In this document: positions 1,260-29,521 of the stretch, piece after piece
How positions within the stretch are numbered: the first letter of the stretch is position 1
Layout: the number at the start of each line of letters is the position of its first letter
From: an uncultured Chthonomonas sp.
Lineage (GTDB): Bacteria; Armatimonadota; Chthonomonadetes; Chthonomonadales; Chthonomonadaceae
Assembly: GCA_903919615.1 (NCBI GenBank)
Contig: CAIXIX010000588.1
Span: 22,324-86,323, forward strand
Direction of reading: 5' to 3'
Length of the DNA stretch: 64,000 nucleotides
Notes under the pieces: generated by a model
What the model was told of the DNA's origin: nothing
Database searches by the model: none
Seen by the model: only the letters and a program-made list of their open reading frames with translations
Program-made: the position numbers and the translations under genes

Positions 1260-1525
1260 CCGACCTCCCTGGCTGAATGAATCGCATCCGATGCGAAACT
1301 GTGACATTAGAATAATACAGCAAGCGGGGATACAAAAAGCGTTACAAAAAGTGCGAATTGTAGGGAATAGGGATAAGGGATGATGGAACGGTGACGGACG
1401 TGTCACCTGCCGGATAGTGGCGCGGTGCGGATTGTGTTTAGGGGGCGCTGCCCGAAGGGCATTTGTTCCTAGACGCGGCATTCATGCCCTGGTGACAGTC
1501 GTAATCAAATTCCAAACGCTTTTCA

Positions 1526-1558
1526 TCCTCTGGACCGGGCTTTGCCCGGCCCAGAGGA
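1526..1558 (-). terminator. Strong GC-rich hairpin downstream of 1788..3203
   Basis: TCCTCTGGACCGGGC-TTT-GCCCGGCCCAGAGGA with one mismatch. No clear U tract follows. Confidence 0.4.
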
Positions 1559-1702
1559 CGAAAGTTAAGATGGCGCGGCAAGTTACTGGGCTGTGAGCGG
1601 CCCAGCTAAGTACAATTGCCCTGCGGGCGGAATTGGCGTAGGAAACGCGCGCTTCTTTGTTCGTAGATTGCAGCGTGCGAAACGAAAGCTCTATAGGACT
1701 GT

Positions 1703-1768
1703 GCCACTACCAATACATCGCATTAACTTCAAAGACTTCAGAGACATCGAGGACTTCATAGAGCTTCC
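1703..1768 (-). repeat. Post-stop 9-nt-periodic repeat cassette, copy A1
   Basis: Minus sense reads GGAAGCTCTATGAAGTCCTCGATGTCTCTGAAGTCTTTGAAGTTAATGCGATGTATTGGTAGTGGC. It begins about 20 nt after stop 1788. Confidence 0.8.
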
Positions 1769-1787
1769 CATACAGAGGCCTTCCCAT

Positions 1788-3203
1788 TCACAGTCCTGAC
1801 CTACTAATTTCCAAAATCGCGCCACTACCTGGCGTCAGGCTAACCGTGAAGGTCCGGCTGCCGTCGGTAAGCACGTGTATGCTCGGGTTAGATCGACCAA
1901 GCACATCCCGCACCTTGCGGATTCTCGTGTGCGCCGTTAGCATCGCCTCCGCGGGCCGATCGAAATCGGGATTTACCACCACTACGAACATCCGACCGGT
2001 TTTCGGATCCTCGAACGAGCCCGTCTGAGTGCCACCCGCAGCAGTGAGCCAATCCGTCTCGATACGCTTAAGGCGCCTCAACAGCTCCCTTTGCCGACCC
2101 AAAGCGACATATAGCGCCGACATCTCGCTGAACTGAGAGGTTGCCAGCCCGTTCTGGTCCAGCAGTGATGCAGGGCCGACCGGTGTTGGCTGGCGCACAA
2201 TAAGGGATTGCAGGGCAGGATCGGTGATGGGAGCAGCTTTCTCGTTGGATTCGCCGGGGCCGAGCAGGCAGAAGAACACTGTGCCTTTCACTCCAAGTCG
2301 AAGCCCCTCCCAGATCTGCCAGCGGATCTCGGCAGGCGTAGGGGTACGCCAATGCACGAACGCACCCGGCAATGCGGTGAGTGACCCATTTCTCTCCTGC
2401 CTGTATGGTCCCCAAATCTCGTTGTAGCACTGCGGCATCAGCAGCCCGGTCCGGCCGTCCTTACCGGCTGCATCCACCATTGCCTGCGCATTGGATGTTA
2501 AGAAGTTACGGGATGAATCGGGCCTGTTGGGTCCATTGGGATTGCCTGCAGAGAAGAAGGGGTAGAGGTCCACACAGAAGGTAGTTAGCCGCGTCTTCGC
2601 GACGAGGTTCGGCGTGTCCACCCACATCGAGACAGCCGTGACGGGGCGTTCGGGATCCGCCTCAACGAAGATCTGGCGCATGGGCTCCATCAGATCTGCG
2701 AAAGGGCCGGATGGTTCGTCGCACAGCACCCAGGCCCGGATGTTGGCCCGTTCCGGACCCAACTCCTGAACGACCTGCGGGATCGTCTTGCGGTAGTACT
2801 CGATCGCCTTCGCATGGAAATCGGCCTGCTTCGGGTCCATGCCCATCGTCCCACCGCAGTTATGCGGCTCGATCTCGCCGATACACGGCAGAAGCTCTAT
2901 ATGTGCCTTGCCCGCGATGGCAGCGAGTCTCTTCGTATCGCTACTGCCGATGTTCACAACCCAGATCGTGTTGACACCGCTTCGCCCAAGCATCTCGCAT
3001 GTCTGCTGCACGAAAGCCCACTTCTCAACACCGACGTTGTTCGCGATGCGATCGGTCCGTTCCCATGGCCAGTAGACGCCGAACACAAAAGACGCAATTG
3101 GAGCCTGCGCTGAATGTAGCGCTGGCCCATCTGCCGAATCGGCCAATACTAGCGATCCGGCGCATAGTATCGCCAGAATCACCAACACGCTCAACACTCG
3201 CAT
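1788..3203 (-). CDS. Secreted glycoside-hydrolase-like TIM-barrel protein (family not assigned)
   Basis: Track ORF 1788..3395 trimmed to ATG 3203, which has GGAGGG 7 nt upstream. The product then opens with signal peptide MRVLSVLVILAILCAGSLVLA. The hydrolase-like call is by eye only. Confidence 0.7.
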   Translation of the reverse strand: MRVLSVLVILAILCAGSLVLADSADGPALHSAQAPIASFVFGVYWPWERTDRIANNVGVEKWAFVQQTCEMLGRSGVNTIWVVNIGSSDTKRLAAIAGKAHIELLPCIGEIEPHNCGGTMGMDPKQADFHAKAIEYYRKTIPQVVQELGPERANIRAWVLCDEPSGPFADLMEPMRQIFVEADPERPVTAVSMWVDTPNLVAKTRLTTFCVDLYPFFSAGNPNGPNRPDSSRNFLTSNAQAMVDAAGKDGRTGLLMPQCYNEIWGPYRQERNGSLTALPGAFVHWRTPTPAEIRWQIWEGLRLGVKGTVFFCLLGPGESNEKAAPITDPALQSLIVRQPTPVGPASLLDQNGLATSQFSEMSALYVALGRQRELLRRLKRIETDWLTAAGGTQTGSFEDPKTGRMFVVVVNPDFDRPAEAMLTAHTRIRKVRDVLGRSNPSIHVLTDGSRTFTVSLTPGSGAILEISRSGL

Positions 3204-3374
3204 CCGAACACCCTCCGATTGCCGGTCGCTTGAAGACCGTTCCCTGCTGGGCAACGATTGTCCTGCGAGGGGACGTAGAAGAGTCTGACGCATAGTCGCA
3301 AAGACGCCAAAATTTGGGTTTGGCGCTGGCCGGAATAGAGCTTCGTGCAACCCAAATGCGGCGCTGCAAGCGGC

Positions 3375-3439
3375 GCCACTACCAATACATCGCACTCAAT
3401 AGCATCAACCTCAAAGACCTCATAGACTTCAAGACTTGA
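3375..3439 (-). repeat. Post-stop 9-nt-periodic repeat cassette, copy A2
   Basis: Minus sense reads TCAAGTCTTGAAGTCTATGAGGTCTTTGAGGTTGATGCTATTGAGTGCGATGTATTGGTAGTGGC. It abuts stop codon 3440-3442. Confidence 0.8.
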
Positions 3440-3922
3440 CTATCCGTTCGCGCTAAACACCACTAGCTCAATCGGCGCATCTGCGGGTGAACCGTCGGTC
3501 AGCCGCTTTAGGACGGCAGGGCTCAGACTGCCAGTGAGGCTCTTCCGATCGGACCGCAGCCGGAATGGAAGGGCGACGGGCATTCCGTTCGGCCCGACTA
3601 CCACAATCCCGAGTCCAACCGGGTGTTGTAACCCGTTAAAGGGAATCGTGATCGTTAGCGGATCGGAAGCAGCGGCCAGGCGTGTGTGGATGCTTTGCGA
3701 AAGCGTAAGGGTGGCGCGCAGATATTTGTTAGAACATGCGCCGCGATGAGCATCCGAAAATTGATTGGAAGAGATCCTTATCCCAATTTCGCTCTCATCC
3801 CAATCGATGCTTACAGGTACATGGAGACGCACATCAAACAGATTGGAGGCGATCCAGAGCTCGCTGGCAATTATGCCAAGCTGATTCATTCGCTGTGTTA
3901 AGTCGCTGACAAAAGCATGCAT
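3440..3922 (-). CDS. Hypothetical protein, no signal peptide
   Basis: Track ORF 3440..3958 begins at TTG. Internal ATG 3922 has GGAGGG 7 nt upstream. No recognisable domain. Confidence 0.55.
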   Translation of the reverse strand: MHAFVSDLTQRMNQLGIIASELWIASNLFDVRLHVPVSIDWDESEIGIRISSNQFSDAHRGACSNKYLRATLTLSQSIHTRLAAASDPLTITIPFNGLQHPVGLGIVVVGPNGMPVALPFRLRSDRKSLTGSLSPAVLKRLTDGSPADAPIELVVFSANG

Positions 3923-4048
3923 CCCAACGCCCTCCAATTCACATCTGTAACGACTCAATCGCAGAAATCGGGCATATTCTTACAACAAGCGATCAGATAA
4001 GCAGATTTAGCCGCAATAAGACGTAGAAGGCACAAAATTCGGGATTGA

Positions 4049-4102
4049 TACCTGCATCTACTTCATCGACATCAAAGACTTCAAAGACGTTTTAGACCTT
4101 CC
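4049..4102 (-). repeat. Post-stop 9-nt-periodic repeat cassette, copy A3
   Basis: Minus sense reads GGAAGGTCTAAAACGTCTTTGAAGTCTTTGATGTCGATGAAGTAGATGCAGGTA. It starts 4 nt after stop 4107-4109. Confidence 0.8.
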
Positions 4103-4106
4103 TAAT

Positions 4107-6854
4107 TCACTTCCCATAATGCACAACCAAATCATTCACCGATACGGCTTTGCCGGCCCCAATCGCAAAAAGCACGAGATTGAAGCGCTTCTTGCCGGTC
4201 CATTTGAGGAGCTGTGCAAGGTTGTAGCTGAACCTGCCCGATTGGCCGGTATCGCCCTGAACGATGAGATCGACTGCGAGCGTTCCATCATTTGCCTTTA
4301 GCGCCCAGGCGCCCTCAATGCTCGGAATACCGATTTCAAGGATGGGGTTCCGATCGAAATCGATCTCGACGCTGTGGTTGGCAGCCGCGTAGTCAGCAGT
4401 GGTCCGCAGCTTTACTATGCCATCCTTCGCGGTTAAGGTCGCGCCGCTGCCTGCGGTCCATCCTTCAGCGCTGCTGAAATCGGCAAGTCGCTTCGTCTCT
4501 GCGTAGACCGTAAGCTTCGCAGAGCGAACTGCGCCCCAGCGCAGATCCTTGCAGGTTATGGTGGCGCTGCCATCGCTTGGCGCTGCACCGACGTTGATGA
4601 CCATCTGTTTGTGCAGCGATGTCCCCTTCCCAATGGGACCATGCTCCCACACCGGCGGCTCTGAACTCCAACCTGCGGGCAGCTGAAGACTCACTCGGCC
4701 GCCCTCTCCCGCGTTTCCATCTGGATTGCAGAGCGTTACATGAGCGTGGATCTGCGTTCCGGGCGATGCGCCTACACTCTCCACCTGAAACTGCAGCTTG
4801 CCCGCCTCTTTCGCCAATGCTGACATCTGATCGACCCCGATTACCTCGAACTTATCGGCAGGCAGGCGGCGCTGTATCTCTGCAACCTGCGCCGGGAAAT
4901 CGGGATTGACGTTGCCGTAACAGAGGATGAAGTAGGGCGCTTCGTGCACAGCTGCGACATCGCGAATGAGGTTGGTCACGATACCAGCCGGGTCTGCCCC
5001 CTTCGGTTCGTAGTAGTAGAGCCGGGAATCGGCGCTGATCACCGGGATACCGTCCTCCAGCCAGGCGTTGCGCGCCGCGCCTACCGTCTGCTGGGTGAAA
5101 CAGCTCGCGTGGACGCGTTGATTGAACGCCGCGTACTTGTCCAACTGTATCGCATTCTCCCAGATATCCACCACCGCGGGCCCGTAATCCTTGAGGCATC
5201 GGCCCGCATGTGCAGCATAGTCCGCCGTGTTCGGCATATGCCACGGGTAGCAGTAGCCGGCCCCGCTGCATCCGGCGAAGAAGCTATCCTGCTCGGTTGC
5301 TGTGCTGGCGTAGTACTCGATAAGCGCGGGCGCGAAGTCGGCAATGTGCGGGTCGATCCCCCACGCGATTGGCGCCTTACCGCGCACTGGATTGATCCAT
5401 GCAGACGCCATCAAGCCGCTCAGGATCTTCGGCGTATCGCCCTCGTTGGTCTGAAACACAACATAATATTTCGGCTTGAGCGCCACAGATGCAGGTGTGC
5501 GAACAGGGATACGCGGCCTTGAAGTGGGGATCTTCGCCCAGAAGCTCATGTTCGGCGCGCCGCAGCACATTACAAAGTTTCCATCGGCGGAGATGCGGCC
5601 GCAGTACTGATCCTCTGGCTCGGCCCAACCGAAGACACCGGAGGGGCGATCGAGTCGGCTCATGATCTCATCGAACAGCTTTGCCTGGTTCACATAGCCG
5701 GGAAGCTGTTTGCCATCGTGCTGCCAGGGCTTGCCGACGGGTGAAAGATTGAAACAGAAGGCCTTCTGCGCGATCGGATAGTCGAGCCCGATGGTGATAC
5801 CAGGATCTCCGCCCAGCCAGGAGTCGTCGTGCGTATGGCCACCGCTAAAGGCAAGTTTGCGCGTGCAGCCAGCCATTAAGTTGTCGATTGCCCAGCGATA
5901 CGCGGTTGGATCGTCGGTCCATCTACCACGCAGATCTTCAACGATGGGCAGTCCGGCGAAGCAGTCTGGCGCCTTCTCCATCGTCGAAGCGAACGGCCTG
6001 CCATCGGCATCGAGCAGCCGCACACGGCTGATCACCACCGCCGAATCTGCGCCAACTGCAAAGAGGCGCAGCGTCACGCGACCGTCCTTTGTCATTACCG
6101 CGCCGCGCAGATCCTGGCGGATCACGCCTGTGCGGTCATTCTCTCGAATCAGTTCGGTATCGACTGAGCCGCCCTCGCCAATCTTTGCGGCCCACAGACC
6201 TTTACAGGATGCGACCGTCACCTCAAGAATGGGAGAACGGTCCCGATGGAGCAGGATAGGGCGATCGATAGCGCCGTAGGGCGGAGTCGGGCCAATGACG
6301 GTGACCTTTAGCCCCTCCGAAGTCTTTTCGGCGCGCGCGCCAGCGCCATGCCATAACGTTGGCTGCTGCATCGAATCGTCGGTCCAGCCGAGCCCCGCTG
6401 ATAGCGCAGGAGTGCGGTATGCCAGGATATCGGGCGTGACGGGCAGCAGATTCTTCTGCGCACAGAGCGTAAGCGCGACGTAGCGGGACGCATCCCGCGC
6501 GGGATCGTACAGCGCCAGGCCTTTAGCGCTGGCCTTAAAATGCTCGATGGTCTCGCGCATTCCGCCCAGCGGATGGAAGTTGAACCCCTTCTTATCGTGA
6601 AGGTAGTTCATCCAGTACTTATCGGAGGTTGGGCACTGCCAGAAGACGGAGTTGGTATCCAGAAAAAGGCGAGGCTCATCGCGATTGACCAGCCCCTGCA
6701 GCGTGTAGATGAGGCACTCCTCGTCGTAGGTCGCGGCCTGCAGTTCCATGGTATAGGCGTCATCCGCGGATGCATTTCGATAAGTAAACAGCAGGAGCGA
6801 TGCGGCGGCGAACAGGGTGACGAGGGCAGAGCGAAGAGACAATCGGGCTGTCAT
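4107..6854 (-). CDS. Secreted GxGYxYP-family putative glycoside hydrolase with C-terminal beta-sandwich domains
   Basis: GxGYxYP motif GAGYCYP in FFAGCSGAGYCYPWHMP. Signal peptide MTARLSLRSALVTLFAAASLLLFTYRNASA from ATG 6854 (track start 6887 is TTG). Confidence 0.8.
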   Translation of the reverse strand: MTARLSLRSALVTLFAAASLLLFTYRNASADDAYTMELQAATYDEECLIYTLQGLVNRDEPRLFLDTNSVFWQCPTSDKYWMNYLHDKKGFNFHPLGGMRETIEHFKASAKGLALYDPARDASRYVALTLCAQKNLLPVTPDILAYRTPALSAGLGWTDDSMQQPTLWHGAGARAEKTSEGLKVTVIGPTPPYGAIDRPILLHRDRSPILEVTVASCKGLWAAKIGEGGSVDTELIRENDRTGVIRQDLRGAVMTKDGRVTLRLFAVGADSAVVISRVRLLDADGRPFASTMEKAPDCFAGLPIVEDLRGRWTDDPTAYRWAIDNLMAGCTRKLAFSGGHTHDDSWLGGDPGITIGLDYPIAQKAFCFNLSPVGKPWQHDGKQLPGYVNQAKLFDEIMSRLDRPSGVFGWAEPEDQYCGRISADGNFVMCCGAPNMSFWAKIPTSRPRIPVRTPASVALKPKYYVVFQTNEGDTPKILSGLMASAWINPVRGKAPIAWGIDPHIADFAPALIEYYASTATEQDSFFAGCSGAGYCYPWHMPNTADYAAHAGRCLKDYGPAVVDIWENAIQLDKYAAFNQRVHASCFTQQTVGAARNAWLEDGIPVISADSRLYYYEPKGADPAGIVTNLIRDVAAVHEAPYFILCYGNVNPDFPAQVAEIQRRLPADKFEVIGVDQMSALAKEAGKLQFQVESVGASPGTQIHAHVTLCNPDGNAGEGGRVSLQLPAGWSSEPPVWEHGPIGKGTSLHKQMVINVGAAPSDGSATITCKDLRWGAVRSAKLTVYAETKRLADFSSAEGWTAGSGATLTAKDGIVKLRTTADYAAANHSVEIDFDRNPILEIGIPSIEGAWALKANDGTLAVDLIVQGDTGQSGRFSYNLAQLLKWTGKKRFNLVLFAIGAGKAVSVNDLVVHYGK

Positions 6855-6916
6855 AGCATGAACCTCACAGGTACTGAAACAATGCAACTACTGTGAAGAT
6901 TATACTAGCAGGCGGA

Positions 6917-6949
6917 GGACAGGTGTTGGGTGTTGGGCTTTAGGACGGA
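6917..6949 (+). repeat. G/T-rich short tandem tract, copy B1
   Basis: GGACAGGTGTTGGGTGTTGGGCTTTAGGACGGA, lying 32 nt beyond stop 6981 of a minus-strand gene. Confidence 0.7.
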
Positions 6950-6980
6950 CATTGCGCCTGCCGGATGGCGAGGCGATTCC

Positions 6981-7895
6981 CTACTCCGCGCTCTCACTAC
7001 CGCTCCCTGCACGAAGCAGCTGTTCTGGAGGTGTGGTGGGGTTGTAGCTTGTGGGTCTCAATAGCTGTTGCGGGGCGGTGCCACCGGAGGATGCACGCAG
7101 CAGAACCTGCGGGCTCTCCTGCCGCTGCTTTGCAGCCTGTAGCAGTGGCAGCGCTTCGTTTGCTGCCTGGCTAACGGCGCGTCCGTTCTCAGTGGAAGCA
7201 CGGCGCAATGCGAGCTGCTCTATGATATTGAGGGAGCTGGTGTCTTCGATGGCGGCCAACGCAGGAATTAGCGTGAGCATGAGGCTCGTTTCGGTATTTG
7301 GGTCGCTGCCTGCGAGCAAAGCCTGCAATGCGCGTCGCTGAGATGCGGTCACAAACTCGATATCTTCGCTCGTGAGCAATGGCAGCAGCCGCATGAGGGC
7401 GCGCACGATTGCGGTGCGAGAGTTGATATCGCGCGCTCCAAGGGCATCTGCGAGCGGCCCTACCGCGCGCTTATCATCCAGTTGTGATAGTGCTGTGATT
7501 ACGGAAGCGTATTCTGTGGGGGGAGCCAGCAGCCCTATGAGGCCGAGACAACCAGAAAGGCCACTGAGTCCGCTGAGTGCAACGTAGTGGTGCGTCAGAA
7601 CAAGGGCGGTCGCAATGGCAGCGCCAACAGCGCCAATGCCACCCATGAAGATCCAGAAAAAGCGCACACTGCGCTTGCGAACGGCTGATATGCAGATGAG
7701 AGAATCGAGCAGAAGCTGCGCACCTTCGGGACCCATCTCCCTTAAACGCTCCTCCATCGCAATGCGTACGCCAACTTTCGGGCTGATGAGCCCGTTGAGG
7801 ATCTCTTGCTGCTGCTGCGTATAGATTTTGCTGTTAACTTTACGGATCATCTTCATAACCGCATCGCCACTCCCTGTGCCAAATCTTCTACTCAT
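6981..7895 (-). CDS. Membrane protein with HEAT-like repeats and triple C-terminal LLRA motif (paralog 1)
   Basis: 304-aa ORF with central hydrophobic segments (FFWIFMGGIGAVGAAIATALVL, LSGLSGCLGLIGLL) and HEAT/PBS-lyase-like helices (AVGPLADALGARDINSRTAIVRALMRLLP). Tail reads VLLRAS..QQLLRP..EQLLRAG. The ATG overlaps the upstream paralog stop by 8 nt. Confidence 0.75.
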   Translation of the reverse strand: MSRRFGTGSGDAVMKMIRKVNSKIYTQQQQEILNGLISPKVGVRIAMEERLREMGPEGAQLLLDSLICISAVRKRSVRFFWIFMGGIGAVGAAIATALVLTHHYVALSGLSGLSGCLGLIGLLAPPTEYASVITALSQLDDKRAVGPLADALGARDINSRTAIVRALMRLLPLLTSEDIEFVTASQRRALQALLAGSDPNTETSLMLTLIPALAAIEDTSSLNIIEQLALRRASTENGRAVSQAANEALPLLQAAKQRQESPQVLLRASSGGTAPQQLLRPTSYNPTTPPEQLLRAGSGSESAE

Positions 7896-8754
7896 CCTCT
7901 GTCGGCCCTGTGCCGGCCCTCAAAAGTTGCTCCGGCTGTTCGGCGCGCACTCCCGCTGTTGCGCGCAGCAGCTGTTCCGGAGGAGCGGCATTTGCGGATG
8001 CTCGCAGCAGCCACTGTGGATCATCCTGCCGAAGTTTCGCTGCCTGCAGAAGCCGTGAGGTTTCATTCGCTGCATCCACCACCCGCTGTTCATTATCGGT
8101 TTGTGGGTGGCGTGCTGCGATCCTCCCGATCAGGCTTAGAGAGGCAACATCCTCCGCCTTCGAAAGGGTCTTCATAAGATCCACCATCAGGTCCGCCTCG
8201 AGATCCGGTACGGATCCTGTCAGCAGTCCGCGCAAGGCAGTCCGCTGAGTGATAGTGAGCGCTGCCGCATCTTCTGCGGTGACCTGCGGCATCAGCTGCA
8301 TCAAAGCGCGGACGACTGCTGCCCGCGAATTAATCTCGCGGATGCTCAAGGCATCGGCCAGAGCGCCTACTGCTCGACAATCATTGAGTTGAGAAAGGGC
8401 GTTGATCACCTGATAGTATCCCGGGCGTGGGCCCATAAACGCGCCCAGCCCAAGGAAACCAAATATCCCGAACAGGCCTGTGAGGCTCATGGCGTTGCCG
8501 GAGAGGGCGCTTATCGCGACAAAAGTAACCATGGCTACCCCGATGCCAGCGATCATAACCCACGTCAGGCGTGCAGCATGACCGCGCTGCTGCCCCATCC
8601 GCCTCAGAATATCCAGTAGGATCTCGGCGCCGCGTGGGCCCATCTCCTGCAGGCGGCGTTCGGTGGTGATTCTGTATCCCACATGTTTACTTGTGAGTCC
8701 GGCCAGGATCTCCTGATGTTCCACGGTGAGATCGAGCGATTCGGTTTTGCGCAT
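7888..8754 (-). CDS. Membrane protein with HEAT-like repeats and triple C-terminal LLRA motif (paralog 2)
   Basis: 288-aa ORF that aligns by eye with 6981..7895 along its whole length (AVGALADALSIREINSRAAVVRALMQLMP). Tail reads WLLRAS..EQLLRAT..EQLLRAG. Confidence 0.75.
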   Translation of the reverse strand: MRKTESLDLTVEHQEILAGLTSKHVGYRITTERRLQEMGPRGAEILLDILRRMGQQRGHAARLTWVMIAGIGVAMVTFVAISALSGNAMSLTGLFGIFGFLGLGAFMGPRPGYYQVINALSQLNDCRAVGALADALSIREINSRAAVVRALMQLMPQVTAEDAAALTITQRTALRGLLTGSVPDLEADLMVDLMKTLSKAEDVASLSLIGRIAARHPQTDNEQRVVDAANETSRLLQAAKLRQDDPQWLLRASANAAPPEQLLRATAGVRAEQPEQLLRAGTGPTEDE

Positions 8755-8830
8755 GAGACCGCCTTCTTCCGGAAATCAAACCGGTTCACCCACAATACGG
8801 TGAGGGTTCAGGGTTGGTTTTATGGAATTC

Positions 8831-8890
8831 ACCTCTTCTACTTCTTCTTCATCATCCTCAACGACCTCAAAGACTTCATAGACCTTCTGA
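8831..8890 (-). repeat. Post-stop 9-nt-periodic repeat cassette, copy A4
   Basis: Minus sense reads TCAGAAGGTCTATGAAGTCTTTGAGGTCGTTGAGGATGATGAAGAAGAAGTAGAAGAGGT. It starts 6 nt after stop 8897-8899. Confidence 0.8.
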
Positions 8891-8896
8891 CCCGAC

Positions 8897-11023
8897 CTAC
8901 TTCGCGTAGATCTCCACTTCGCGGAGCATGATCTGATGCGCACCCGTCTGACCGCCGGCCATCACCACATCCTGTGTTGCGCCACCACCCCAGGTAGTAT
9001 CGTGCACAAGCAGTCGGATTTTGCTGGTTACTACCGGCTTGAAGGAATGCTGGAAGATCCACCGGTCGGTGGCGAAGCTGTCGACCGTGGTGCGCGTTAC
9101 TGAGGTGTAGACCTTGATGGTTCTGGCTGGCTCGCTTACACGATCCACTGTAACCCACTTACCGCTCTGATCTACCTGAAGCTCATAATCGAGCAGGGAT
9201 GCCATCCACTGCCACGGATTGCCGGAGAAGACTAGAACGCGGGAGACCTTTTGAGGCGAAGGAAGGTCGATCTCGACCCAGGCTGGGAAGCCCTTCGTAT
9301 CATCCATCCAGGGCTGCGTGTCTCGCTGCTGATTCCAGTACCAGTTCTCGTAGACACCATTTATTATCTTCTTGATGTTATTATCGATCCGCTTGTCCAG
9401 CGGGTGCTGTCCCGTTCCGGACGCGGAAGCGGTAACTCCAGCCTGAAGTGCGAGGTTCGGGCCGAAATCGATAGGAATCGGCGTGATCTGCTGGTCTTTT
9501 GTTGGCTCAACGTAAACTGGCAGTTGAGGAACTGGCAGATCAACCTTACCGGCGCGCACGGGCAGATCGCTCTCCACGCCGAATGCGGAAACGATGTGCA
9601 GCTTCGAGCCTGAGCTGACTTTGATCTCAATGTGTCCGTCGGTGCTGCCGGCGCTCTGGAATGCTGCAACACGCTTGCCGGGACCAGTAAAGATGCTGCC
9701 CAGGTAGAGCGTGTTGCCATTGGCGCCCAAATCGTAGCTATGGGCGAAACGGGTTCCGTAAAGCTCTTCAGACCAGACGCGCATGAGCGGCGCAGCAGGG
9801 TTCAGGCTCCCATCCTCGTTCTCCCACCACGTGGGGAATTCCCAGAAACCATGGCTCCGATCATACCAGAGATGGTTGTGCTCCTTCGGAATGCCGTACT
9901 GCTCATAGACCATCATCTCCAACGTGGTCCACCGCGCCTGATGACCAGGCTGATACGAGCCATACATCGCAGCGAAAAAGCCCTGTTCGGTTTGCCACTT
10001 CTCAATCTTCTCAAGGCCATATTTCGCTAAGAGCGCTTTGAGGCTATCCATACCTTTACGTGCCAGCCACAGGTCGCCGTTTACCGTGTTGTAAGCATGG
10101 AAAGAGAAGGCATCGATATACTTCCCGCCATCCGCCTTCAGGAAATCCTCTATCCAATTTAATCCAGAGCCAAATGGTCCGATAGAAACGGTGCCAGGAC
10201 CGAGCACTTTCAGCTTTGGATCGACGCTCTTGACCGTTTCGTAGAACGGTTTCATCTCATTGACTACAAAGTTGGCGCCTGTACTGCCGCCATTGGGTTC
10301 ATTGCGCGGCTCCCAGTACTCCACATCGTTCTTAAAGTGTTCGACGATTTTGCGAACGCCATCCAGGTTCTTCGTGCCATTCGGAAAGGCGACCATAAGC
10401 GCCCGCTTCCGTAGCGGATCGTAGGGCAGATAGTATGTCTTATCGAGCTCGATATCTGCTTCCAGCTTACGGATTGATTCGTCTGGCTTGTTGGCGTCCA
10501 CCGCATGGCGCTGTGGTCCCATGCCGGTAACACCTCGCATCGGCTCATCCATAGCGGGATAGGAGCCGTAAGGCGTGCCCTTAGGAGGCAGGTCTGGAAA
10601 GCCAGACTTCTTGCGAAAGACGACAAAGGTGGTGCCTCCAACCTCTGTACCGAAGGGAGGATGCGCCTCAGAACCGTAAACATACAGCTTGTACCAGCCG
10701 GGCGGCTGCGGCTTGATACTGATCTGCGTGCCGTCGCCAGTGGTGCCACGATCGAGGATGTCTCCCTCGAATCCACGGACCTCCCAGTTGATCGCTCCGT
10801 TGCCTTTAATGCTGAACTGGATTGGTTCGCCGACCATAAACACTGGATTCCGTTTACCAGAATCGAGAGTCACCAGGCCGGGCCGCTTCGTTTTAACCCA
10901 ACCCTGACCACGCATAGGCGCGGCGCCGAGAATGAGGACAGTTGTAACTACGGGAAGAATGCAAACGAGATATTTCAAGCTAAACCTGATCCTATACGCA
11001 AAAAAGTCAATGGCCCGGCTCAT
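8897..11023 (-). CDS. Secreted clan GH-A glycoside hydrolase with C-terminal F5/8 type C (discoidin) domain
   Basis: 708-aa ORF with an N-terminal hydrophobic signal. YWEPRNEPNG resembles the NEP acid/base motif of clan GH-A. The C-terminal ~150 aa (PAWVEIDLPSPQKVSRVLVFSG...YELQVDQSGKWVTV) is discoidin-like. Confidence 0.75.
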   Translation of the reverse strand: MSRAIDFFAYRIRFSLKYLVCILPVVTTVLILGAAPMRGQGWVKTKRPGLVTLDSGKRNPVFMVGEPIQFSIKGNGAINWEVRGFEGDILDRGTTGDGTQISIKPQPPGWYKLYVYGSEAHPPFGTEVGGTTFVVFRKKSGFPDLPPKGTPYGSYPAMDEPMRGVTGMGPQRHAVDANKPDESIRKLEADIELDKTYYLPYDPLRKRALMVAFPNGTKNLDGVRKIVEHFKNDVEYWEPRNEPNGGSTGANFVVNEMKPFYETVKSVDPKLKVLGPGTVSIGPFGSGLNWIEDFLKADGGKYIDAFSFHAYNTVNGDLWLARKGMDSLKALLAKYGLEKIEKWQTEQGFFAAMYGSYQPGHQARWTTLEMMVYEQYGIPKEHNHLWYDRSHGFWEFPTWWENEDGSLNPAAPLMRVWSEELYGTRFAHSYDLGANGNTLYLGSIFTGPGKRVAAFQSAGSTDGHIEIKVSSGSKLHIVSAFGVESDLPVRAGKVDLPVPQLPVYVEPTKDQQITPIPIDFGPNLALQAGVTASASGTGQHPLDKRIDNNIKKIINGVYENWYWNQQRDTQPWMDDTKGFPAWVEIDLPSPQKVSRVLVFSGNPWQWMASLLDYELQVDQSGKWVTVDRVSEPARTIKVYTSVTRTTVDSFATDRWIFQHSFKPVVTSKIRLLVHDTTWGGGATQDVVMAGGQTGAHQIMLREVEIYAK

Positions 11024-11072
11024 CCGTGAGCCAGGCCATTGAAACCAGTTATGTTAATCGTATGAGAAGCGA

Positions 11073-12078: not shown

Positions 12079-13401
12079 ATGAAACTGACCCAAATGGACC
12101 GACGCAACTTTCTTAACCACGCAGGCAAGGGGCTTGGCGTTGCCGCACTCTCGTGCGCGGCAGTTGGTTCCCTCCTCGATGACACGCTTGCAGCAGTGAA
12201 CACTGTCGCACATTTATCTGTTGAAGAGGCGGCCATGCAGGAGGACTTCTGGTTCGAGATTCAGAGATCCTTCACCGTCACGCGTGGAATTGTTAACCTG
12301 AACAACGGGGGTGTTTCACCCAGCCCACGCCTTGTTACGGAAGCTCTGGTTCGGTACATCTGGCAGCAAGAGGATGCGACGGCCTACACGATGTGGCAGC
12401 TTCTCGAGCCACAATCCGAAACGATTCGAACGGGGCTGGCACAACTCTTCGGCTGTGACCGTGAGGAGATCGCAATTACACGAAATGCATCGGACTCGCT
12501 TGAAACTCTGCTGCTCGGGTTCGATTTGAAGCCGGGCGACGAAATCCTGACAACAACTCAGGACTATGGCCGCATGCTCAACACGATGCGTCAGCGGGAG
12601 TTGCGAGATGGAATTAAGCTTAAGCTGATTAAGATACCGGTGCCGCCTAAGCACGTTGAAGAGATCACCGATGCGTACGAGAGAGCCATCACTCCACGCA
12701 CGCGACTGATCCAGATTGCCCACCAGATTAATCTTACGGGCCAGATTATGCCGGTAAAAGCGGTTTGTGATATGGCGAGAGCGAAGGGTGTTGAGACCAT
12801 TGTTGATGGTGCGCACACCTTTGCGCAGTTTCACTTTAAGCAGGCCGATCTTAATTGCGATTACTATGGCACCAGCCTGCATAAATGGCTCTACGCTCCA
12901 AAGGGTACGGGCATGCTCTATGTGAAGCACGATAAGATCTCGAAAATCTGGCCGCTGCTCGCCTCCGACAAAAAGCAGGCGAGTGATATCCGCAAGTTTG
13001 AAGAGATAGGCACACACTCGGCTGCGCCGAAGCTGGCAATTGGCGAAGCGCTCCTTTTTCATCATGGAATTGGAGGCGAACGGAAGGAAGCGCGACTGCG
13101 ATATCTATCTCGATATTGGATGGATCGGCTGAAAGATGTGCCGAAGATTCGGTTCAATACCTCCTTCGATCCAGCTCAGATGTGCGCGATCGCCAATGTG
13201 CAGATTGAGGGCCAGGATATCGGCAAAGTCACTGGCTACCTGTTTGATAAGCATCGAATTCTGGTAACGCCAATAGTTCACGACGAGTTCCAGGGATTGC
13301 GTGTGACGCCGAACGTATACACGACGCTTCCGGAACTTGACCGATTCTGTGAAGTGATCGAGACCATCGCACGCAAAGGACTGCCAACGGTAACCGGGTA
13401 A
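12079..13401 (+). CDS. Class V aminotransferase-fold PLP enzyme (cysteine desulfurase / isopenicillin-N epimerase-like) with twin-arginine signal
   Basis: Start moved to ATG 12079, giving MKLTQMDRRNFLNHAGKGLGVAALSCAA (Tat motif RRNFL). SLHKWLYAPKGTG is a PLP-lysine region typical of class V enzymes. Confidence 0.8.
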   Translation: MKLTQMDRRNFLNHAGKGLGVAALSCAAVGSLLDDTLAAVNTVAHLSVEEAAMQEDFWFEIQRSFTVTRGIVNLNNGGVSPSPRLVTEALVRYIWQQEDATAYTMWQLLEPQSETIRTGLAQLFGCDREEIAITRNASDSLETLLLGFDLKPGDEILTTTQDYGRMLNTMRQRELRDGIKLKLIKIPVPPKHVEEITDAYERAITPRTRLIQIAHQINLTGQIMPVKAVCDMARAKGVETIVDGAHTFAQFHFKQADLNCDYYGTSLHKWLYAPKGTGMLYVKHDKISKIWPLLASDKKQASDIRKFEEIGTHSAAPKLAIGEALLFHHGIGGERKEARLRYLSRYWMDRLKDVPKIRFNTSFDPAQMCAIANVQIEGQDIGKVTGYLFDKHRILVTPIVHDEFQGLRVTPNVYTTLPELDRFCEVIETIARKGLPTVTG

Positions 13402-13423
13402 TGCGGTAATGCGGTAGTTGGTT
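13397..13423 (+). repeat. G/T-rich short tandem tract, copy B2
   Basis: GGTAATGCGGTAATGCGGTAGTTGGTT. The first unit contains stop codon TAA 13399-13401. Confidence 0.7.
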
Positions 13424-13550
13424 CGCCTGCCGGACGAATGCTGCGAAGGCGCCCGGTTCAACCGCATGCCTAAATCGTTTTGCCACCATGATGCATAGTC
13501 CTCGGCTCCATAGAGATACACAGCCTGATCCACGCCTCCATGATATTGGG

Positions 13551-20071: not shown

Positions 20072-21634
20072 TTATGACAGGATCTGTTTCATGACGCGAC
20101 CTTCGTCGGTTGGGCCAATGAGCCGGTTGTTCAGTCCCAAGTATCGGTACGAGAACCGGAATGGATCGAGGCCAAGCTGATGTAGAATCGTCGCTTGAAG
20201 GTCGCGTACCGTCATCTTATCCTTCGCGATGTAGTAGGCAAGCTCATCGGTTTCGCCAAATGCGAGCCCTGGCTTAATACCACCGCCCGCCATCCACATC
20301 GAGAAACCGTAGGGGTGATGGTCGCGTCCAATGAAGCCCTTTACACGCTCGGTTCGCACATTGTTCTGCTGCATTGGGGTTCGGCCGAACTCGCCGCCCC
20401 ACACGATCAAGGTACTGTCAAGAAGTCCCCGCTGTTTCAGATCTGTCAGCAATCCGCCTATCGCTTTATCGATCTGCTTGCACTTAATTGGCAGCCCTTC
20501 GTCAATCGATTCGCCGGGCGAACTGCCGTGATGGTCCCATCCCCAATCATACAGTTGCACGAACCGAACTCCGCGCTCAACGAGACGCCTTGCCAGCAAG
20601 CAGTTGTTTGCGAAGGTCGCGTCGTCGCCACGATAGTTGGCGCGTGGATCGTCCTGACCGACAATGTTCGAGACGTAGCCGGGTTTTGCGCCGTATAGAT
20701 CGAGGATGTTCTTGGGCTCTTTCGAGATGTCCATCACTTCCGGCACAGAGATCTGCATGCGATAGGCAAGCTCATACTGCGCAATGCGGGTCAGCGTCTC
20801 GTCGTCGCCAACATGCTGATGCTGAAAATGGTTCAAATCGTTCAGCGCATCCAGCGTTTTCCTGCGCAGTTCGCGATCCATTCCACCAGGATTGCTCAGG
20901 TAAAGAACGGGGTCGCCGCCATCGGTTCTGCACTGTACTCCCTGATAAATGCTAGGCAGGAAGCCGCTGCCCCAGACACTTGTGCCGGCATCGGGAGCTT
21001 TGCCACCACTGGTTAGCACAACAAATCCTGGCAGATCCTGATTGACGGAGCCCAGACCATAGGTGGTCCAGGCGCCCATGCTGGGGTAACCGAAACGGCT
21101 TTGACCTGTATGAATAAAGAGCTGGGCCGGCGCATGATTGAACTGTTCCGTGAACATCGACCGGATCACGCATATATCGTCGGCTTTCGCCGCTAGATTT
21201 GGCAAAAGTTCACTGATGTACTGACCGCTCTGCCCGTGCCGCTCGAACTTAAACTGATGCCCGAGCATCTTGGGCACACCCCTAATAAACGCGAAGCGCT
21301 TGCCTTTCAGGAACTCAGCCGGGCAGTCTTTACCATCGTACTTGTTCAGTTCTGGCTTGTACTCAAATAGCTCCAACTGCGAGGGCGAACCGGCCATGTG
21401 CAGGTAGATGACCGCCTTCGCCTTTTGCGGAATCATTGGCGCTTTTGGTGCGAGTGGGCCAGGCGCTGCAACATATGGCTTTGTCTGCGCGTGCCCATCC
21501 TGCTGCAGCAGCGTTTCGAGCGCGATCGATCCCAACCCGACTCCAACCCCGCCAAAGAACTGCCTACGCGTTGAGGCAAGGGCGCGCTGAAGCGGCAGAT
21601 CGTGTTCTATATCGATTTCAGGATCTCTACTCAT
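20072..21634 (-). CDS. DUF1501 (sulfatase/alkaline-phosphatase-fold) protein with Tat signal
   Basis: STRRQFFGGVGVGLGSIAL twin-arginine signal. Conserved DUF1501 blocks GGEFGRTP and GRDHHP. Starts 9 nt after the stop of the upstream DUF1553 gene. Confidence 0.85.
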   Translation of the reverse strand: MSRDPEIDIEHDLPLQRALASTRRQFFGGVGVGLGSIALETLLQQDGHAQTKPYVAAPGPLAPKAPMIPQKAKAVIYLHMAGSPSQLELFEYKPELNKYDGKDCPAEFLKGKRFAFIRGVPKMLGHQFKFERHGQSGQYISELLPNLAAKADDICVIRSMFTEQFNHAPAQLFIHTGQSRFGYPSMGAWTTYGLGSVNQDLPGFVVLTSGGKAPDAGTSVWGSGFLPSIYQGVQCRTDGGDPVLYLSNPGGMDRELRRKTLDALNDLNHFQHQHVGDDETLTRIAQYELAYRMQISVPEVMDISKEPKNILDLYGAKPGYVSNIVGQDDPRANYRGDDATFANNCLLARRLVERGVRFVQLYDWGWDHHGSSPGESIDEGLPIKCKQIDKAIGGLLTDLKQRGLLDSTLIVWGGEFGRTPMQQNNVRTERVKGFIGRDHHPYGFSMWMAGGGIKPGLAFGETDELAYYIAKDKMTVRDLQATILHQLGLDPFRFSYRYLGLNNRLIGPTDEGRVMKQILS

Positions 21635-21643
21635 GGCTCTCTT

Positions 21644-24600
21644 TCACGGTTTGCTCACCGTCTCATCCAGGTTGAGCAGAACATTGGCGACCGTTATGCA
21701 GGCAGCCAGCTCGGCGCCACGGTCCTCAGAGGCGGACAGATTTGCAGCGGCCAAAAGGCTCTTCGCCGCCTCAGGCTTTGCTTTGAACCCGGCTAGCGTC
21801 AGCCTATAGAGCGCAACGAGCCGCGATGCCTCTGCGGGGTAGGGTACGCGAACCAGAGTGCGGCGAAATCCGGTTACGATTCTCTGCTGCACATCTGTCG
21901 GGCTCGCTGCGAGCATCGCCTTACCAAGCGCGCCTGCAGCCTCAATATATGCCGGGTCGTTGAGCGTAACGAGCGCCTGCAGCGGTGTGTTCGTGCGAAT
22001 TCGGCGGACCACACAGAACTCGCCGCTGCCGGCATCGAAGGTTGTCATCGCCGGATAGGGGCTTGAACGGCGCCAGAAGGTATACAATCCGCGCCGGTAT
22101 CGATCTTCCCCTTTGCTGGTCTCCCACTTCATGCCGCTATAAACGGTCCGCCAGATGCCGGATGGCTGAGGCGGCATCATGGACGGGCCATACATTTTCG
22201 AAGAAAGCAGCCCGGAAACGGCAAGCGCCTGGTCGCGTATCATCTCCGCCGTCATGCGGAAGCGCGGACCTCGGCTCAATAGCAGATTGCGAGGATCGAT
22301 CTTCTTCTTGAGTGGCGTCGCAACCGATGCCTGTCGATAGGTAGAAGACATAACGATTGTCTTGCACAGCTTCTTGAACGACCAGCCCATGTCATCTCGG
22401 AAACTTGCCGCCAGATAGTTGAGAAGATCAGGATTCGATGGTGGCACGCCCTGGGTGCCAAAGTCCTCTTCGGTCTCAACAATGCCAACGCCGAACATGC
22501 GTGCCCAGATTCGATTAACGGCGACACGCGGTGTGAGAGGGTTGGATTTGGAAACAAGCCACTGCGCCGCTCCGAGGCGATTGGGCGGCGCTCCCGCTGG
22601 AAGCGCGCCAAACGCTGCCGGAACTGCAGGCGTAACGGTATCACCCGGATCCATAAAATTACCGCGACGGTGGATGCGAGTGACCCGTTGCTTATCCGTC
22701 GTAAGCTCTTTCATGATCGGAATTCGCGGTATCGAAGCCTCAAGCGTTTTCTGCTCGGCTTCCGCTGCGGCAATCTGCTTCCAGATGGCATCCGTCGGGG
22801 CATGTGTCTGTCGGAACGCCTCTTTCAGACGCTGTCGATCGGCGTCCGATCGCTTTGCAGCGGCTCTCGCGGCGATCTCAGAAATATCATCTGCCGTGGG
22901 CTGAAGCAGCTTGGGATCGGAAGATGAGAACGAAATTCGGAAACATCCGTGCTGCAGGCGTGCGTAGTTTTGCCGGATCGTCAAGCGCACCTGCTGGTTT
23001 GCATCGACCGCAGGCAGAGGAGATTTGAGATCAAATATTGCCACGTGCGCCTGAGCGTTCTGTGGTGAAAAGGCCCAGCCTGTATCTGGGTTGCCGTCAA
23101 TCGCCGCGCTAACCGGCCAGCCACCTTGCTCAAAATCGGCTCGCGCATTGGTAAGTGCCAACTTCGAGCCAGCTGCGGCATTCGGAGCGATCGACTCTAT
23201 CGTTATCTCAGACGTGACGACGTTCTGATCGGCAGCATCCCGTCCAGGGCCGCCGTTGGGCAAGGATGGATCTTTCAGCGCCTCGAGCCTCATCGCAGTT
23301 ATTCCGCCAGCCGGAACCGCACAGGTCAGTGTATAGACATCTTTGTCCTTGTGCGTGCCGGAAACCAGCAGAGCGCCATCGGCACGAGCATGGATTGTTG
23401 CGCCGCTCTCAGCCTTCGCTTCGATGTGTGATGCGTTGCTCCATGTTCTTGATGCTGCGAGCTGTTTCTCCCAGGCTGGCTGCTGCGCATCCAGATTGGG
23501 ACTGTCCCGATTGAACGACTCACGGAGCGATATGACACGGCCCTGGACCTCCGCAAGCTTCTTGCGCTGATCCTCGGACGGCATTTGCGCCGTAGGTGTT
23601 TCATCGCCATAATTCGCATCGGCCGTCTGATTGAACAGCGCGTAGAACCGATAGTACTCCTGATTGGTGACGGGATCGTACTTGTGCGAATGGCACTTTG
23701 CGCAGCCAATCGTAAGCCCCATCCACACCTGCCCGGTGGTGTCTACGCGATCCTTGATGGCAGCAACCCGGAACTCTTCAGGATCAACTCCCCCTTCGGT
23801 ATTTGTCATCGTGTTGCGATGACAGGCCGTTGCGAGCAACTGAGAATCGGTTGGGTTCGGCAGCAGGTCGCCGGCAAGCTGTTCTACGGTGAAGCGATCG
23901 TAGGGCATATCGGTATTAAACGCATCGATCACCCAATCCCGGTAACGCCAGATGGTTCGCGGGTTGTCCTTCTCGTACCCCTGCGTATCCGCATACCGCA
24001 TCAGATCCAGCCACATTCGCGCCCAGTACTCGCCATAACGCGGCGAGTTGAGCAGGCGATCGACCGCATGCTCGTATGCCTGCTTGCTCCCATCACTCAT
24101 AAAAGCGGCAACATCGGATTGCGCTGGAGCAAGCCCCGTCAAGTCGAGCGACAGCCGGCGTATCAGCGTGTAGCGATCTGCCTCAGGCGCAGGAATCAGA
24201 CCGGCCTTTTGCAGCCCATGCATCACGAAGCTATCGATGGGATTCCGTATCCATGCGGACTGAGTCCCTTTGATCTTCGGCTGCGCCGGCCGAGTAATAG
24301 GAGAGAATGCCCAGTGATCGGCGTAGGGCGCACCCTGCTGTACCCAGAGCGACAGCAGCCGCTTCTGTTCGGCACTTAGCTTGTGCTGAGAAGCGACCGG
24401 AGGCATAATCAGGTCGGACGACGAGGTATTGATCCTCGCAATAATATCGCTCTTTTCCGGTTTGCCCGGATCGATCGCCCTGCCAGACGGGCGAGATGCT
24501 ATCGCCGTATCGCGCGTATCCAGCCGCAGCCCACCCTGGCGCGTAAGCGGATCCTGACCGTGACACGTGAAACAATTGATCGCAAGAATAGGCCGGATGT

Positions 24601-24745
24601 CTTTGCTGTAATCGACCGGGGCACGGAGGCGCAGATTGTCCGGCGGACTTGATTTGTGCGGCGATGCGCAGACAGAGGACGCCGCAAAGGCCAACAGCGG
24701 AGCCATCAGACGAGACGCTCGGTTAAGTGCGAAAATCAAATTCAT
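21644..24745 (-). CDS. PSCyt / DUF1549 / DUF1553 protein (planctomycete-type cytochrome c domain protein)
   Basis: Signal peptide, haem motif CFTCHG, then the DUF1549 block (RRLSLDLTGLAP) and the DUF1553 block (CAKCHSHKYDP). ATG 24745 chosen. GTG 24763, the track start, would overlap the upstream stop as GTGA. Confidence 0.85.
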   Translation of the reverse strand: MNLIFALNRASRLMAPLLAFAASSVCASPHKSSPPDNLRLRAPVDYSKDIRPILAINCFTCHGQDPLTRQGGLRLDTRDTAIASRPSGRAIDPGKPEKSDIIARINTSSSDLIMPPVASQHKLSAEQKRLLSLWVQQGAPYADHWAFSPITRPAQPKIKGTQSAWIRNPIDSFVMHGLQKAGLIPAPEADRYTLIRRLSLDLTGLAPAQSDVAAFMSDGSKQAYEHAVDRLLNSPRYGEYWARMWLDLMRYADTQGYEKDNPRTIWRYRDWVIDAFNTDMPYDRFTVEQLAGDLLPNPTDSQLLATACHRNTMTNTEGGVDPEEFRVAAIKDRVDTTGQVWMGLTIGCAKCHSHKYDPVTNQEYYRFYALFNQTADANYGDETPTAQMPSEDQRKKLAEVQGRVISLRESFNRDSPNLDAQQPAWEKQLAASRTWSNASHIEAKAESGATIHARADGALLVSGTHKDKDVYTLTCAVPAGGITAMRLEALKDPSLPNGGPGRDAADQNVVTSEITIESIAPNAAAGSKLALTNARADFEQGGWPVSAAIDGNPDTGWAFSPQNAQAHVAIFDLKSPLPAVDANQQVRLTIRQNYARLQHGCFRISFSSSDPKLLQPTADDISEIAARAAAKRSDADRQRLKEAFRQTHAPTDAIWKQIAAAEAEQKTLEASIPRIPIMKELTTDKQRVTRIHRRGNFMDPGDTVTPAVPAAFGALPAGAPPNRLGAAQWLVSKSNPLTPRVAVNRIWARMFGVGIVETEEDFGTQGVPPSNPDLLNYLAASFRDDMGWSFKKLCKTIVMSSTYRQASVATPLKKKIDPRNLLLSRGPRFRMTAEMIRDQALAVSGLLSSKMYGPSMMPPQPSGIWRTVYSGMKWETSKGEDRYRRGLYTFWRRSSPYPAMTTFDAGSGEFCVVRRIRTNTPLQALVTLNDPAYIEAAGALGKAMLAASPTDVQQRIVTGFRRTLVRVPYPAEASRLVALYRLTLAGFKAKPEAAKSLLAAANLSASEDRGAELAACITVANVLLNLDETVSKP

Positions 24746-24759
24746 AGGATGTCTCAAGA

Positions 24760-26229: not shown

Positions 26230-26252
26230 ATCAGGCCTCGAACCATAAAGAC

Positions 26253-26328: not shown

Positions 26329-26338
26329 TATGGCCAGC

Positions 26339-29383: not shown

Positions 29384-29521
29384 CTGGTCGGATACCTGGG
29401 AAAAAGAGTGTGTGCGACTGCACGATAGACGCAGCAATAATTGGTGATGCCCTAAGCTGACTGATCGTTAGCCCTTTAGATCGCTATTCCCTGCTTTTGT
29501 TTCCGCATAGAATAGTAAGTG

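Follow-up and report, generated by a model that had tools for sequence, protein, structure and literature searches.

We analysed a 64,000-nucleotide (nt) stretch of the genome of an uncultured Chthonomonas sp. (contig CAIXIX010000588.1, positions 22,324 to 86,323), hereafter the window, in which a series of minus-strand genes is interrupted by short arrays of a 9-mer of the type GARGTCTTT. According to gene calls on identical metagenome contigs, this co-directional series encodes proteins of 201, 708, 288, 291, 915, 160 and 471 amino acids (aa) in this order, with one array, or cassette, following the 708-aa gene (c4), the 915-aa gene (c3), the 160-aa gene (c2) and the 471-aa gene (c1). After c1 comes a gene for a RoxA-like cytochrome c, which runs off the start of the window. 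The coordinates of the cassettes and of the features associated with them are collected in Table 1.

Table 1. Cassettes and associated features of the window, with sequences read on the minus strand.
Feature	Position	Strand	Context	Layout	Search result
c1	1703-1787	-	Right after the TGA stop (1788-1790) of the 471-aa gene	5' motifs ATGGGAAGG / TATGGGAAG, then units GAAGTCCTC GATGTCTCT GAAGTCTTT GAAGTTAAT, then 20-mer TGCGATGTATTGGTAGTGGC	nhmmer 1773-1707, E = 2e-15; TRF period 9
c2	3335-3439	-	Right after the TAG stop (3440-3442) of the 160-aa gene	Units GAAGTCTAT GAGGTCTTT GAGGTTGAT, then 20-mer TGCGATGTATTGGTAGTGGC, then tail with small GC hairpin (3379-3358) and ATTTGGGTTGCA	nhmmer 3436-3379, E = 3e-8
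c3	4039-4106	-	Right after the TGA stop (4107-4109) of the 915-aa GxGYxYP glycoside hydrolase gene	AGGAAGGTCTAA AACGTCTTT GAAGTCTTT GATGTCGAT GAAGTAGAT GCAGG	nhmmer 4104-4039, E = 2e-17
c4	8824-8896	-	Right after the TAG stop (8897-8899) of the 708-aa F5/8-type-C / glycosyl hydrolase gene	AGAAGGTCTAT GAAGTCTTT GAGGTCGTT GAGGATGAT GAAGAAGAA...	nhmmer 8895-8824, E = 6e-16
D1	1444-1630	-	76 nt downstream of c1	~190-nt element, predicted to be structured	
Module E, alone	6922-6968	-	7 nt past the stop of the 291-aa gene	CCATCCGGCAGGCGCAAT (E also CCATCCGGCAGGCRCAAT), then (CCCAACA)n array	Exact pattern match of E at 6951-6968; TRF array at 6922-6937
Segment absent from the relative at 89% nucleotide identity	1385-3401	-	Distal c2, 471-aa gene, c1 and D1	72 unrelated or decayed nt in its place	

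Stop-adjacent cassettes in a glycan-degradation gene series

The initial annotation of this DNA, made from the sequence alone, had reported four cassettes with a 9-nt period on the minus strand at 1703-1768, 3375-3439, 4049-4102 and 8831-8890. Direct reading of the minus strand confirms all four, and Tandem Repeats Finder (TRF) called period 9 at every one of them. Each also contains an exact match to the 20-mer GTCTNTGARGTCTTTGADGT (1726-1745, 3408-3427, 4069-4088 and 8864-8883), for which dinucleotide-preserving shuffles give an expectation of 0.06 matches. A profile hidden Markov model (HMM) built from the copies found two more, c5 and c6, on same-strain contigs that reach 10 kb to the left of the window, and zero additional copies in the 64-kb window, including the region from 12 to 64 kb. 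All six copies (E = 1e-8 to 1e-17) lie inside 17 kb; together with ~22 kb of overlapping same-strain contigs the window covers ~86 kb of the genome. A fifth candidate within the window, at 47108-47127 on the plus strand, was rejected (nhmmer E = 9).

The stop codons from which the initial annotation had measured its distances agree with the gene calls, and the in-window cassettes start 2-15 nt past a co-oriented stop codon. Outside the window, c5 begins 14 nt past the TAA of the RoxA-like gene, and c6 lies between two genes on the opposite strand and so has no co-oriented stop before it. All six copies are intergenic and five of the six are stop-adjacent (2-15 nt), which has a probability of ~3.5e-6 if a 60-nt element is placed uniformly in those spacers. 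A preference for post-stop positions, which had been set as a test of the element, is therefore found with the two outside copies included. The four upstream proteins are mutually unrelated by BLASTP, as the initial annotation had supposed in treating the element as independent of its neighbours. A common C-terminal domain encoded ahead of c3 and c4 was considered and rejected, the 708-aa and 915-aa proteins being unrelated.

Internal architecture

Each copy of the element spans ~50-70 nt and consists of a purine-rich 5' motif, (G)GGAAG(G/T)...TCTATG, then 3-6 ordered and differentiated 9-nt units, then the 3' end GARGTWGATGC. Among 40 units, positions A2, G4, T5 and T9 are conserved, giving a T-R-A-R-G-T core followed by three looser bases. 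The loosest positions are 3 and 7, with 6 next; the initial annotation had placed the variation mainly at 3 and 6, which is right for position 3 and leaves out position 7.

The copies form three sub-types (c1 with c6, c2 with c5 and c3 with c4) that exchange tails. The unit order of c1 is almost identical to that of c6, the tail of c2 is homologous to the tail of c6, and the distal 20-mer TGCGATGTATTGGTAGTGGC, already described as common to c1 and c2, is exact in both and is found solely at 1703 and 3375. Judged by their sequences, the copies are homologous whole elements and not independent products of slippage, since the shared unit order and the tail-exchanging sub-types point to elements that were copied entire and then recombined with one another. 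The cassette stands alone in c2, c3 and c4 and forms the 5' part of a ~400-nt composite in c1, c5 and c6.

Absence of RNA structure and of coding signal

There is no dyad symmetry in the arrays, and no inverted partner arm was found within or beside them. Predicted RNA folds of the four array spacers were no better than those of shuffled sequences (z = +0.79, -0.85, +1.06 and +0.22); the nearest hairpins lie outside the arrays, in the c2 tail (3379-3358) and in the D1 module (1563-1521). A promoter and terminator scan placed no terminator-like site inside the arrays; its counts were not above those of shuffles, and c3 alone is overlapped by a plus-strand promoter-like match. In a search of the window against Rfam, no match overlapped an array at the gathering score or at E <= 0.5. 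The element is thus non-palindromic and neither a repetitive extragenic palindrome (REP) nor an intrinsic terminator, as first proposed, and it matches no Rfam family.

The initial annotation had read in the units a codon-like (E/D)-V-x signature. It had correctly stated, as our translations agree, that c1 to c3 are in frame with the upstream gene, that c4 is shifted by +1 and that c3 has an internal TAA. On this basis the arrays might be coding or recently coding, either as a readthrough (E/D)-V-x extension, as the decayed tail of an open reading frame (ORF), or as K-S-L mini-ORFs (MKSLRSLRMMKKK) behind the GGAAGG motif, which resembles a Shine-Dalgarno sequence. The E-V frame is open over 26-82 codons. 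Furthermore, in a relative at 89% nucleotide identity (loci L123/L124, with a 160-aa protein that is 84% identical), hereafter the 89% relative, the 915-aa ORF and a 42-codon open E-V frame are parted by a single TGA, and an ATG stands 3 nt past GGAAGG in c1, c4, the relative's c4 and c5. However, chance alone would put three of four copies in frame with P = 0.11, no more than five of nine copies have the ATG, and a 5-nt deletion shifts c2 of the relative in addition to the interruptions noted for c3 and c4. Comparison with the 89% relative, whose flanking genes have 93% protein identity, revealed no excess of synonymous change in any of the six frames: 3 synonymous and 11 non-synonymous changed codons were counted in the E-V frame, and 3 and 12 in the K-S-L frame. 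Unit position 9, the third codon position of the E-V-x frame, is among the most conserved while position 7 is variable, which is the opposite of a codon pattern. Finally, phmmer with the E-V peptide as query, run against 1.84 billion proteins, gave nothing at E <= 0.001. The (E/D)-V-x signature is better described as a nucleotide motif, and we regard a coding origin of the arrays as highly improbable. Taken together, these results suggest that the cassette is neither a terminator nor a REP hairpin and does not encode a peptide.

The composite element and other intergenic modules

In the composites, a module that we call D trails c1, c5 and c6 by 76-107 nt. Besides D1 there are two copies left of the window, at 5216-5405 and 12626-12817 on the plus strand of L129 (D5 and D6 being the modules that accompany c5 and c6). 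RNAalifold predicts for D1 a long-range closing helix of GCCCGCAGGGC with GCCCTTCGGGC (consensus GCCCGMAGGGC with GCCCTKCGGGC), and within it a 17-23-base-pair (bp) GC hairpin, which in D1 is the one at 1563-1521, and two small hairpins. The predicted fold has 64 pairs, 8 of which show compensatory changes among the three copies. A covariance model of D scores 191.7 bits at D1 and recovers only the three known copies in the ~349 kb searched. Module D, which had no Rfam match, is a candidate for a new structured RNA. Next in the composite stands a 42-nt block that hardly varies, GGCATGAATGCCGCGTCTAGGAACAAATGCCCTTCGGGCAGC, and the composite ends in a module E (CCATCCGGCAGGCACAAT), found at the 3' ends of D1, D5 and D6, together with TTACCnnn arrays. 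Array, tail, D, 42-nt block and E are combined in differing ways among the copies.

Module E also occurs alone, past the stop of the 291-aa gene, and arrays of GGTAAnnn 8-mers abut stops at 13388-13416 and 39368-39392 (both plus strand). At 6922, 13397, 26254 and 39368 TRF called arrays of other units, with a period of 7 or 8. The solitary E and the GGTAAnnn arrays at stops suggest that this genome carries a repertoire of mosaic intergenic modules favouring the first post-stop bases. In all, short intergenic modules that abut stops, these among them, were noted at 6922-6968 (minus), 13388-13440 (plus), 26254-26282, 39360-39392 (plus) and 55867-55884 (minus); in the second of these the TAA stop of the gene (13399-13401) sits inside the first GGTAA unit.

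Two full-length matches to the Acido-Lenti-1 RNA family (RF01687) lie on the minus strand of L129 at 5146-5191, between c5 and D5, and at 12893-12938, after D6. Their scores, 31.2 and 29.2 bits, fall short of the gathering score, which is 37; no Acido-Lenti-1 match was found inside the window. The family has been reported from Acidobacteria and Lentisphaerae (PMC2864571).

Conservation of the cassettes in relatives

In the 89% relative, c4, c3 and c2 are retained, each at the junction that it occupies in the window. Its arrays are 78-85% identical to those of the window, with unit-sized or triplet indels, whereas the remaining spacer is 95% identical at c3 and 87% at c4. Fourfold degenerate sites are 69% identical. 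At c3, 7 of the 14 spacer substitutions fall within the 47-nt array, where the relative reads GACTTTCAAGTTTTTGAAG, with core positions hit and the periodicity broken; c4 is ~78% identical and has a 6-nt indel; in the c2 spacer, which has the 5-nt deletion mentioned above, the core TGAGGTCTTTGAGGTTGATGC is the sole part that can be aligned. These sequence comparisons suggest that the arrays are under weak constraint at most, below that of the neighbouring regulatory DNA.

In more distant relatives the element is missing. The profile HMM detected no cassette copy in L119, L125, L130 or L132, and none stands beside the relatives at 58%, 62% and 51% amino-acid identity (L119, L130 and L132). L125, at 46% amino-acid identity, conserves the junction of the 708-aa and 288-aa genes with an unrelated spacer of 197 nt and no array, which argues that c4 entered a pre-existing junction. 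The element is retained at 89% nucleotide identity and absent at 46-62% amino-acid identity and is therefore young.

This pattern bears on the possibility that the array is a cis-acting binding site, in which T-R-A-R-G-T every 9 nt would form a platform for an oligomeric protein that tunes the next cistron or module D. Such a platform could act as RNA, by analogy with the triplet arrays bound by TRAP or HutP or through Shine-Dalgarno-like GGAAGG/GAGGU sequences that hold the 30S subunit after termination, or as DNA, by analogy with the tandem operators of MetJ or the omega repressor. The conserved hexamer core with its looser 3-nt spacer and the unstructured context would suit a function of this kind, as would the position of all six copies, which precede the next gene start or D module by 76-199 nt, the sense orientation of five of the six, and a conservation that exceeds that of fourfold degenerate sites. 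The changes in the 89% relative speak against it, for the substitutions strike the core and break the period, the units differ in number and spacing, and c2 tolerates the loss of 5 nt. In addition, relatives that are slightly more distant and share the operon junction have no array, c6 is antisense, sites spaced at 9 bp would lie on different faces of duplex DNA, and no candidate binding protein was identified among the ORFs tested. We consider a binding array unlikely.

A gene difference flanked by c1 and c2

The homology of the window with L123/L124 in blastn ends at 3402, the end of the c2 array, and restarts at 1375 near the promoter of the RoxA-like gene. The c1 and c2 pair thus flanks a difference in gene presence, the segment of Table 1 being absent from the 89% relative. 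One explanation would be that the arrays are gene-capture junctions, with modules entering together with or beside arrays in the way that integron cassettes carry attC, and with a growing point beside D. The arrays follow unrelated co-oriented genes right after the stop, c1 and c2 with their identical 20-mer bracket the 471-aa gene that the relative lacks, and in the operon D is present only at the distal end of the series of arrays, all of which a capture model would accommodate. Yet the c1/c2 difference is a replacement (2017 nt against 72 nt) and not a clean insertion, it is the single such event observed, and the junction of the 708-aa and 288-aa genes is older than its array, L125 having the one without the other. 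The arrays also have no inverted-repeat architecture, and no integrase or transposase domain was found in the ORFs tested from the window and from the 10 kb that adjoin it on the left. Gene capture through the arrays therefore strikes us as improbable.

Recurrence of the 9-mer in other genomes

The bare 9-mer is found well beyond this lineage. In the Acidobacteria assembly RPQK01, which provides about a quarter of the 20-mer matches listed in species-representative genomes, at least 26 loci among the matches listed carry inverted arrays of the form (CTCAAGGAC)n-loop-(GTCYTTGAG)n. The Acidobacteriota assemblies CAYGWQ01 and CAVRJA01 also carry hairpins of these two arms. In these assemblies the hairpins lie mostly 7-50 nt from ORF ends, their arms always stand in that order, and some are flanked by GTAATTCGT arrays. 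We found no published description of this Acidobacteriota hairpin family. Runs of (GAAGTCTTT)n are present in unrelated phage, giant-virus, actinomycete and Firmicute contigs as well, and the 9-mer thus seems to recur as a tandem repeat across many lineages. Single-arm arrays of (GAGGTCYTT)n or (GAAGTCTTT)n were seen in Nonomuraea candida (L008, 946-965), where the array lies 22 nt past a stop between convergent ORFs, and at the viral loci L136, L144, L149, L151 and L153.

We asked whether the window copies could be decayed single arms of the hairpin family typified by RPQK01, a REP-like family whose many loci also favour ORF ends. The two genomes share short arrays of the GTAAnTCG type, and the sub-threshold Acido-Lenti-1 matches adjoin c5 and D6, a hint of a host that resembles Acidobacteria or Lentisphaerae. 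The window and RPQK01 elements themselves have only the bare 9-mer in common, for which the scan selected by design and which is recurrent in unrelated viral and bacterial contigs, and this speaks against a homology between the two; RPQK01 has neither the 5' motif nor the unit order, 3' end, tails or D module. Near no window copy is there a partner arm or a remnant of one, and the window and RPQK01 loci examined show no protein similarity. Descent from the hairpin family is very doubtful, and we treat the likeness as an analogy, with homology a possibility.

Comparison with known repeat systems

In several respects the cassette resembles the bacterial interspersed mosaic elements (BIMEs) of Escherichia coli and its relatives, which contain REPs, or palindromic units (PU). 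Both are short non-coding modules that form mosaics between operon genes or at gene 3' ends, often a few bases past the stop, and both are lineage-specific and variable between close relatives. REP units are imperfect, hairpin-forming palindromes, however, whereas the 9-mer cassette has neither dyad symmetry nor a fold, and it is the hairpin that accounts for the known effects of REPs on mRNA stability and ribosome stalling. No domain of the REP-associated tyrosine transposases (RAYT, IS200/IS605-like) was found in the tested ORFs of the window and the adjoining 10 kb, with ~86 kb of the genome covered.

A second likeness is to the short tandemly repeated repetitive (STRR) sequences of heterocystous cyanobacteria, which are intergenic arrays of short units with several unit families per genome and no established function; the unit families here are GARGTCTTT, GGTAAnnn / TTACCnnn and CCCAACA. 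In cyanobacteria the STRR units are 7-mers with about a hundred or more copies. The cassette differs from them in its 9-nt units, which are differentiated and in a fixed order, in its few and local copies with defined 5' and 3' ends, and in its strict adjacency to stops.

Integron attC sites (59-base elements) likewise lie past the stops of unrelated co-oriented genes and bound units of presence and absence; here one such difference is bounded by c2 and c1, and the c4 junction is older than its array. They are, however, imperfect inverted repeats with R''/L''-L'/R' boxes that are recombined by IntI as folded single-stranded DNA, and the cassette has none of these features. We saw no GTTRRRY / RYYYAAC attC core in the cassette sequences read, and no integrase domain in the ORFs tested in the 64-kb window and the 10 kb to its left. 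The Acidobacteriota hairpin arrays share with the cassette the same 9-nt unit and an intergenic position near gene ends; they differ in being always inverted pairs that form long hairpins, in numbering dozens per genome, and in having no flanking modules in common with it. Finally, the RNA sites of TRAP ((G/U)AG) and HutP (UAG) and the DNA sites of MetJ (metbox) and the omega repressor (heptads) are unbroken runs of short repeats in which a conserved core alternates with a loose spacer, a likeness by analogy only, for period and motif differ and the cassette arrays decay fast between close relatives.

Other features of the window

The 291-aa gene (6981-7856) and the 288-aa gene (7888-8754), both on the minus strand, are paralogues whose products are 48% identical and have no Pfam or NCBIfam match, and the 31-nt spacer between them has no cassette. 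An exact 20-mer, TTTGTAACGCTTTTTGTATC, is found on the minus strand at 1329-1348 of the window and at 19133-19152 of L128, ~70 nt upstream of the starts of the RoxA-like cytochrome c gene and of an unannotated 397-aa gene 9 kb off. It is also kept in the 89% relative and is probably a promoter or operator element that the two genes share. At 11007-11042 (minus strand), in the gap between the 201-aa and 708-aa genes, a GC-rich hairpin of 16 bp precedes CTTTTTTG and overlaps the ATG called for the 708-aa gene (11023). This could be a terminator or an attenuator; alternatively, the gene start may be miscalled. Elsewhere in the window there are three PSCyt1-PSCyt2-PSD1 proteins of ~1,040 aa, each encoded beside a DUF1501 protein (20072-29437 and 52611-57654), two BTAD-ATPase-TPR regulators (39488-42595 and 47231-50683) and a PEP-CTERM protein with NHL repeats (42772-43752). 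The PSCyt/PSD1/DUF1501 pairs and the PEP-CTERM protein would be in keeping with a bacterium like those of the PVC superphylum or the Acidobacteriota.

A proposed stop-adjacent module of a mosaic intergenic repeat

The copies of the cassette are homologous, non-coding, unstructured, young, stop-adjacent and mosaic with other modules. The explanation that we favour, with moderate confidence, is that the cassette belongs to a family of mosaic, non-coding intergenic repeats, young and restricted to its lineage, and makes up the stop-adjacent module of that family; it was spread by recombination and is kept where it is harmless. As such it looks like a further kind within the mosaic extragenic repeats known from other bacteria, one that is non-palindromic and built of tandem units.

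We infer that the element spread locally through recombination or duplication between intergenic copies and not through independent slippage. Copies c1 and c2, with their identical 20-mer, flank the 2-kb stretch with the 471-aa gene that is present here and absent from the relative. In these spacers, ~60 additional bases can probably be accommodated without harm only right after the stop. Copies might persist there because the remaining spacer is constrained, containing the control signals of the next gene and being conserved above coding DNA. Within a polycistronic transcript the array would form an unstructured, non-translated tract with at most a weak sequence-dependent role, for instance as a single-stranded spacer or as a landing pad before a structured module or the next cistron.

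Several observations weigh against this explanation. The notion of a dispersed family is based on six copies in one 17-kb neighbourhood. We saw no transposase or recombinase in the ORFs tested, whether from the window or from the 10 kb beside it, and no target-site duplication. A scarcity of harmless sites does not wholly explain the extreme adjacency to stops in the two long spacers (403 and 529 nt). The arrays also do better than fourfold degenerate sites, with ~24 differences against ~40 expected in 130 nt, which hints at function or at gene conversion. The orientation of c6, antisense to its neighbours, fits a passive repeat and not a uniform role in 3' untranslated regions.

The cassette could also be a true stop-adjacent cis element, either a single-stranded platform presenting UGARGU every 9 nt to an RNA-binding oligomer or to terminating ribosomes, in concert with D, or a junction for gene capture that is independent of an integrase; we hold this to be a long shot. 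Were the platform form true, it would set the relative output of neighbouring cistrons, and the gene-capture form would mean that glycan-degradation operons are assembled gene by gene.

Should the cassette be the repeat module that we favour, mosaic extragenic repeats need not be palindromic, and a tandem-unit module that forms no hairpin can take the same position just past the stop. Such modules would mark changes of gene content in the polysaccharide-degradation operons of uncultured freshwater bacteria, and the cassette profile together with the covariance model of D could be used as markers of strain-level rearrangement in lake metagenomes.

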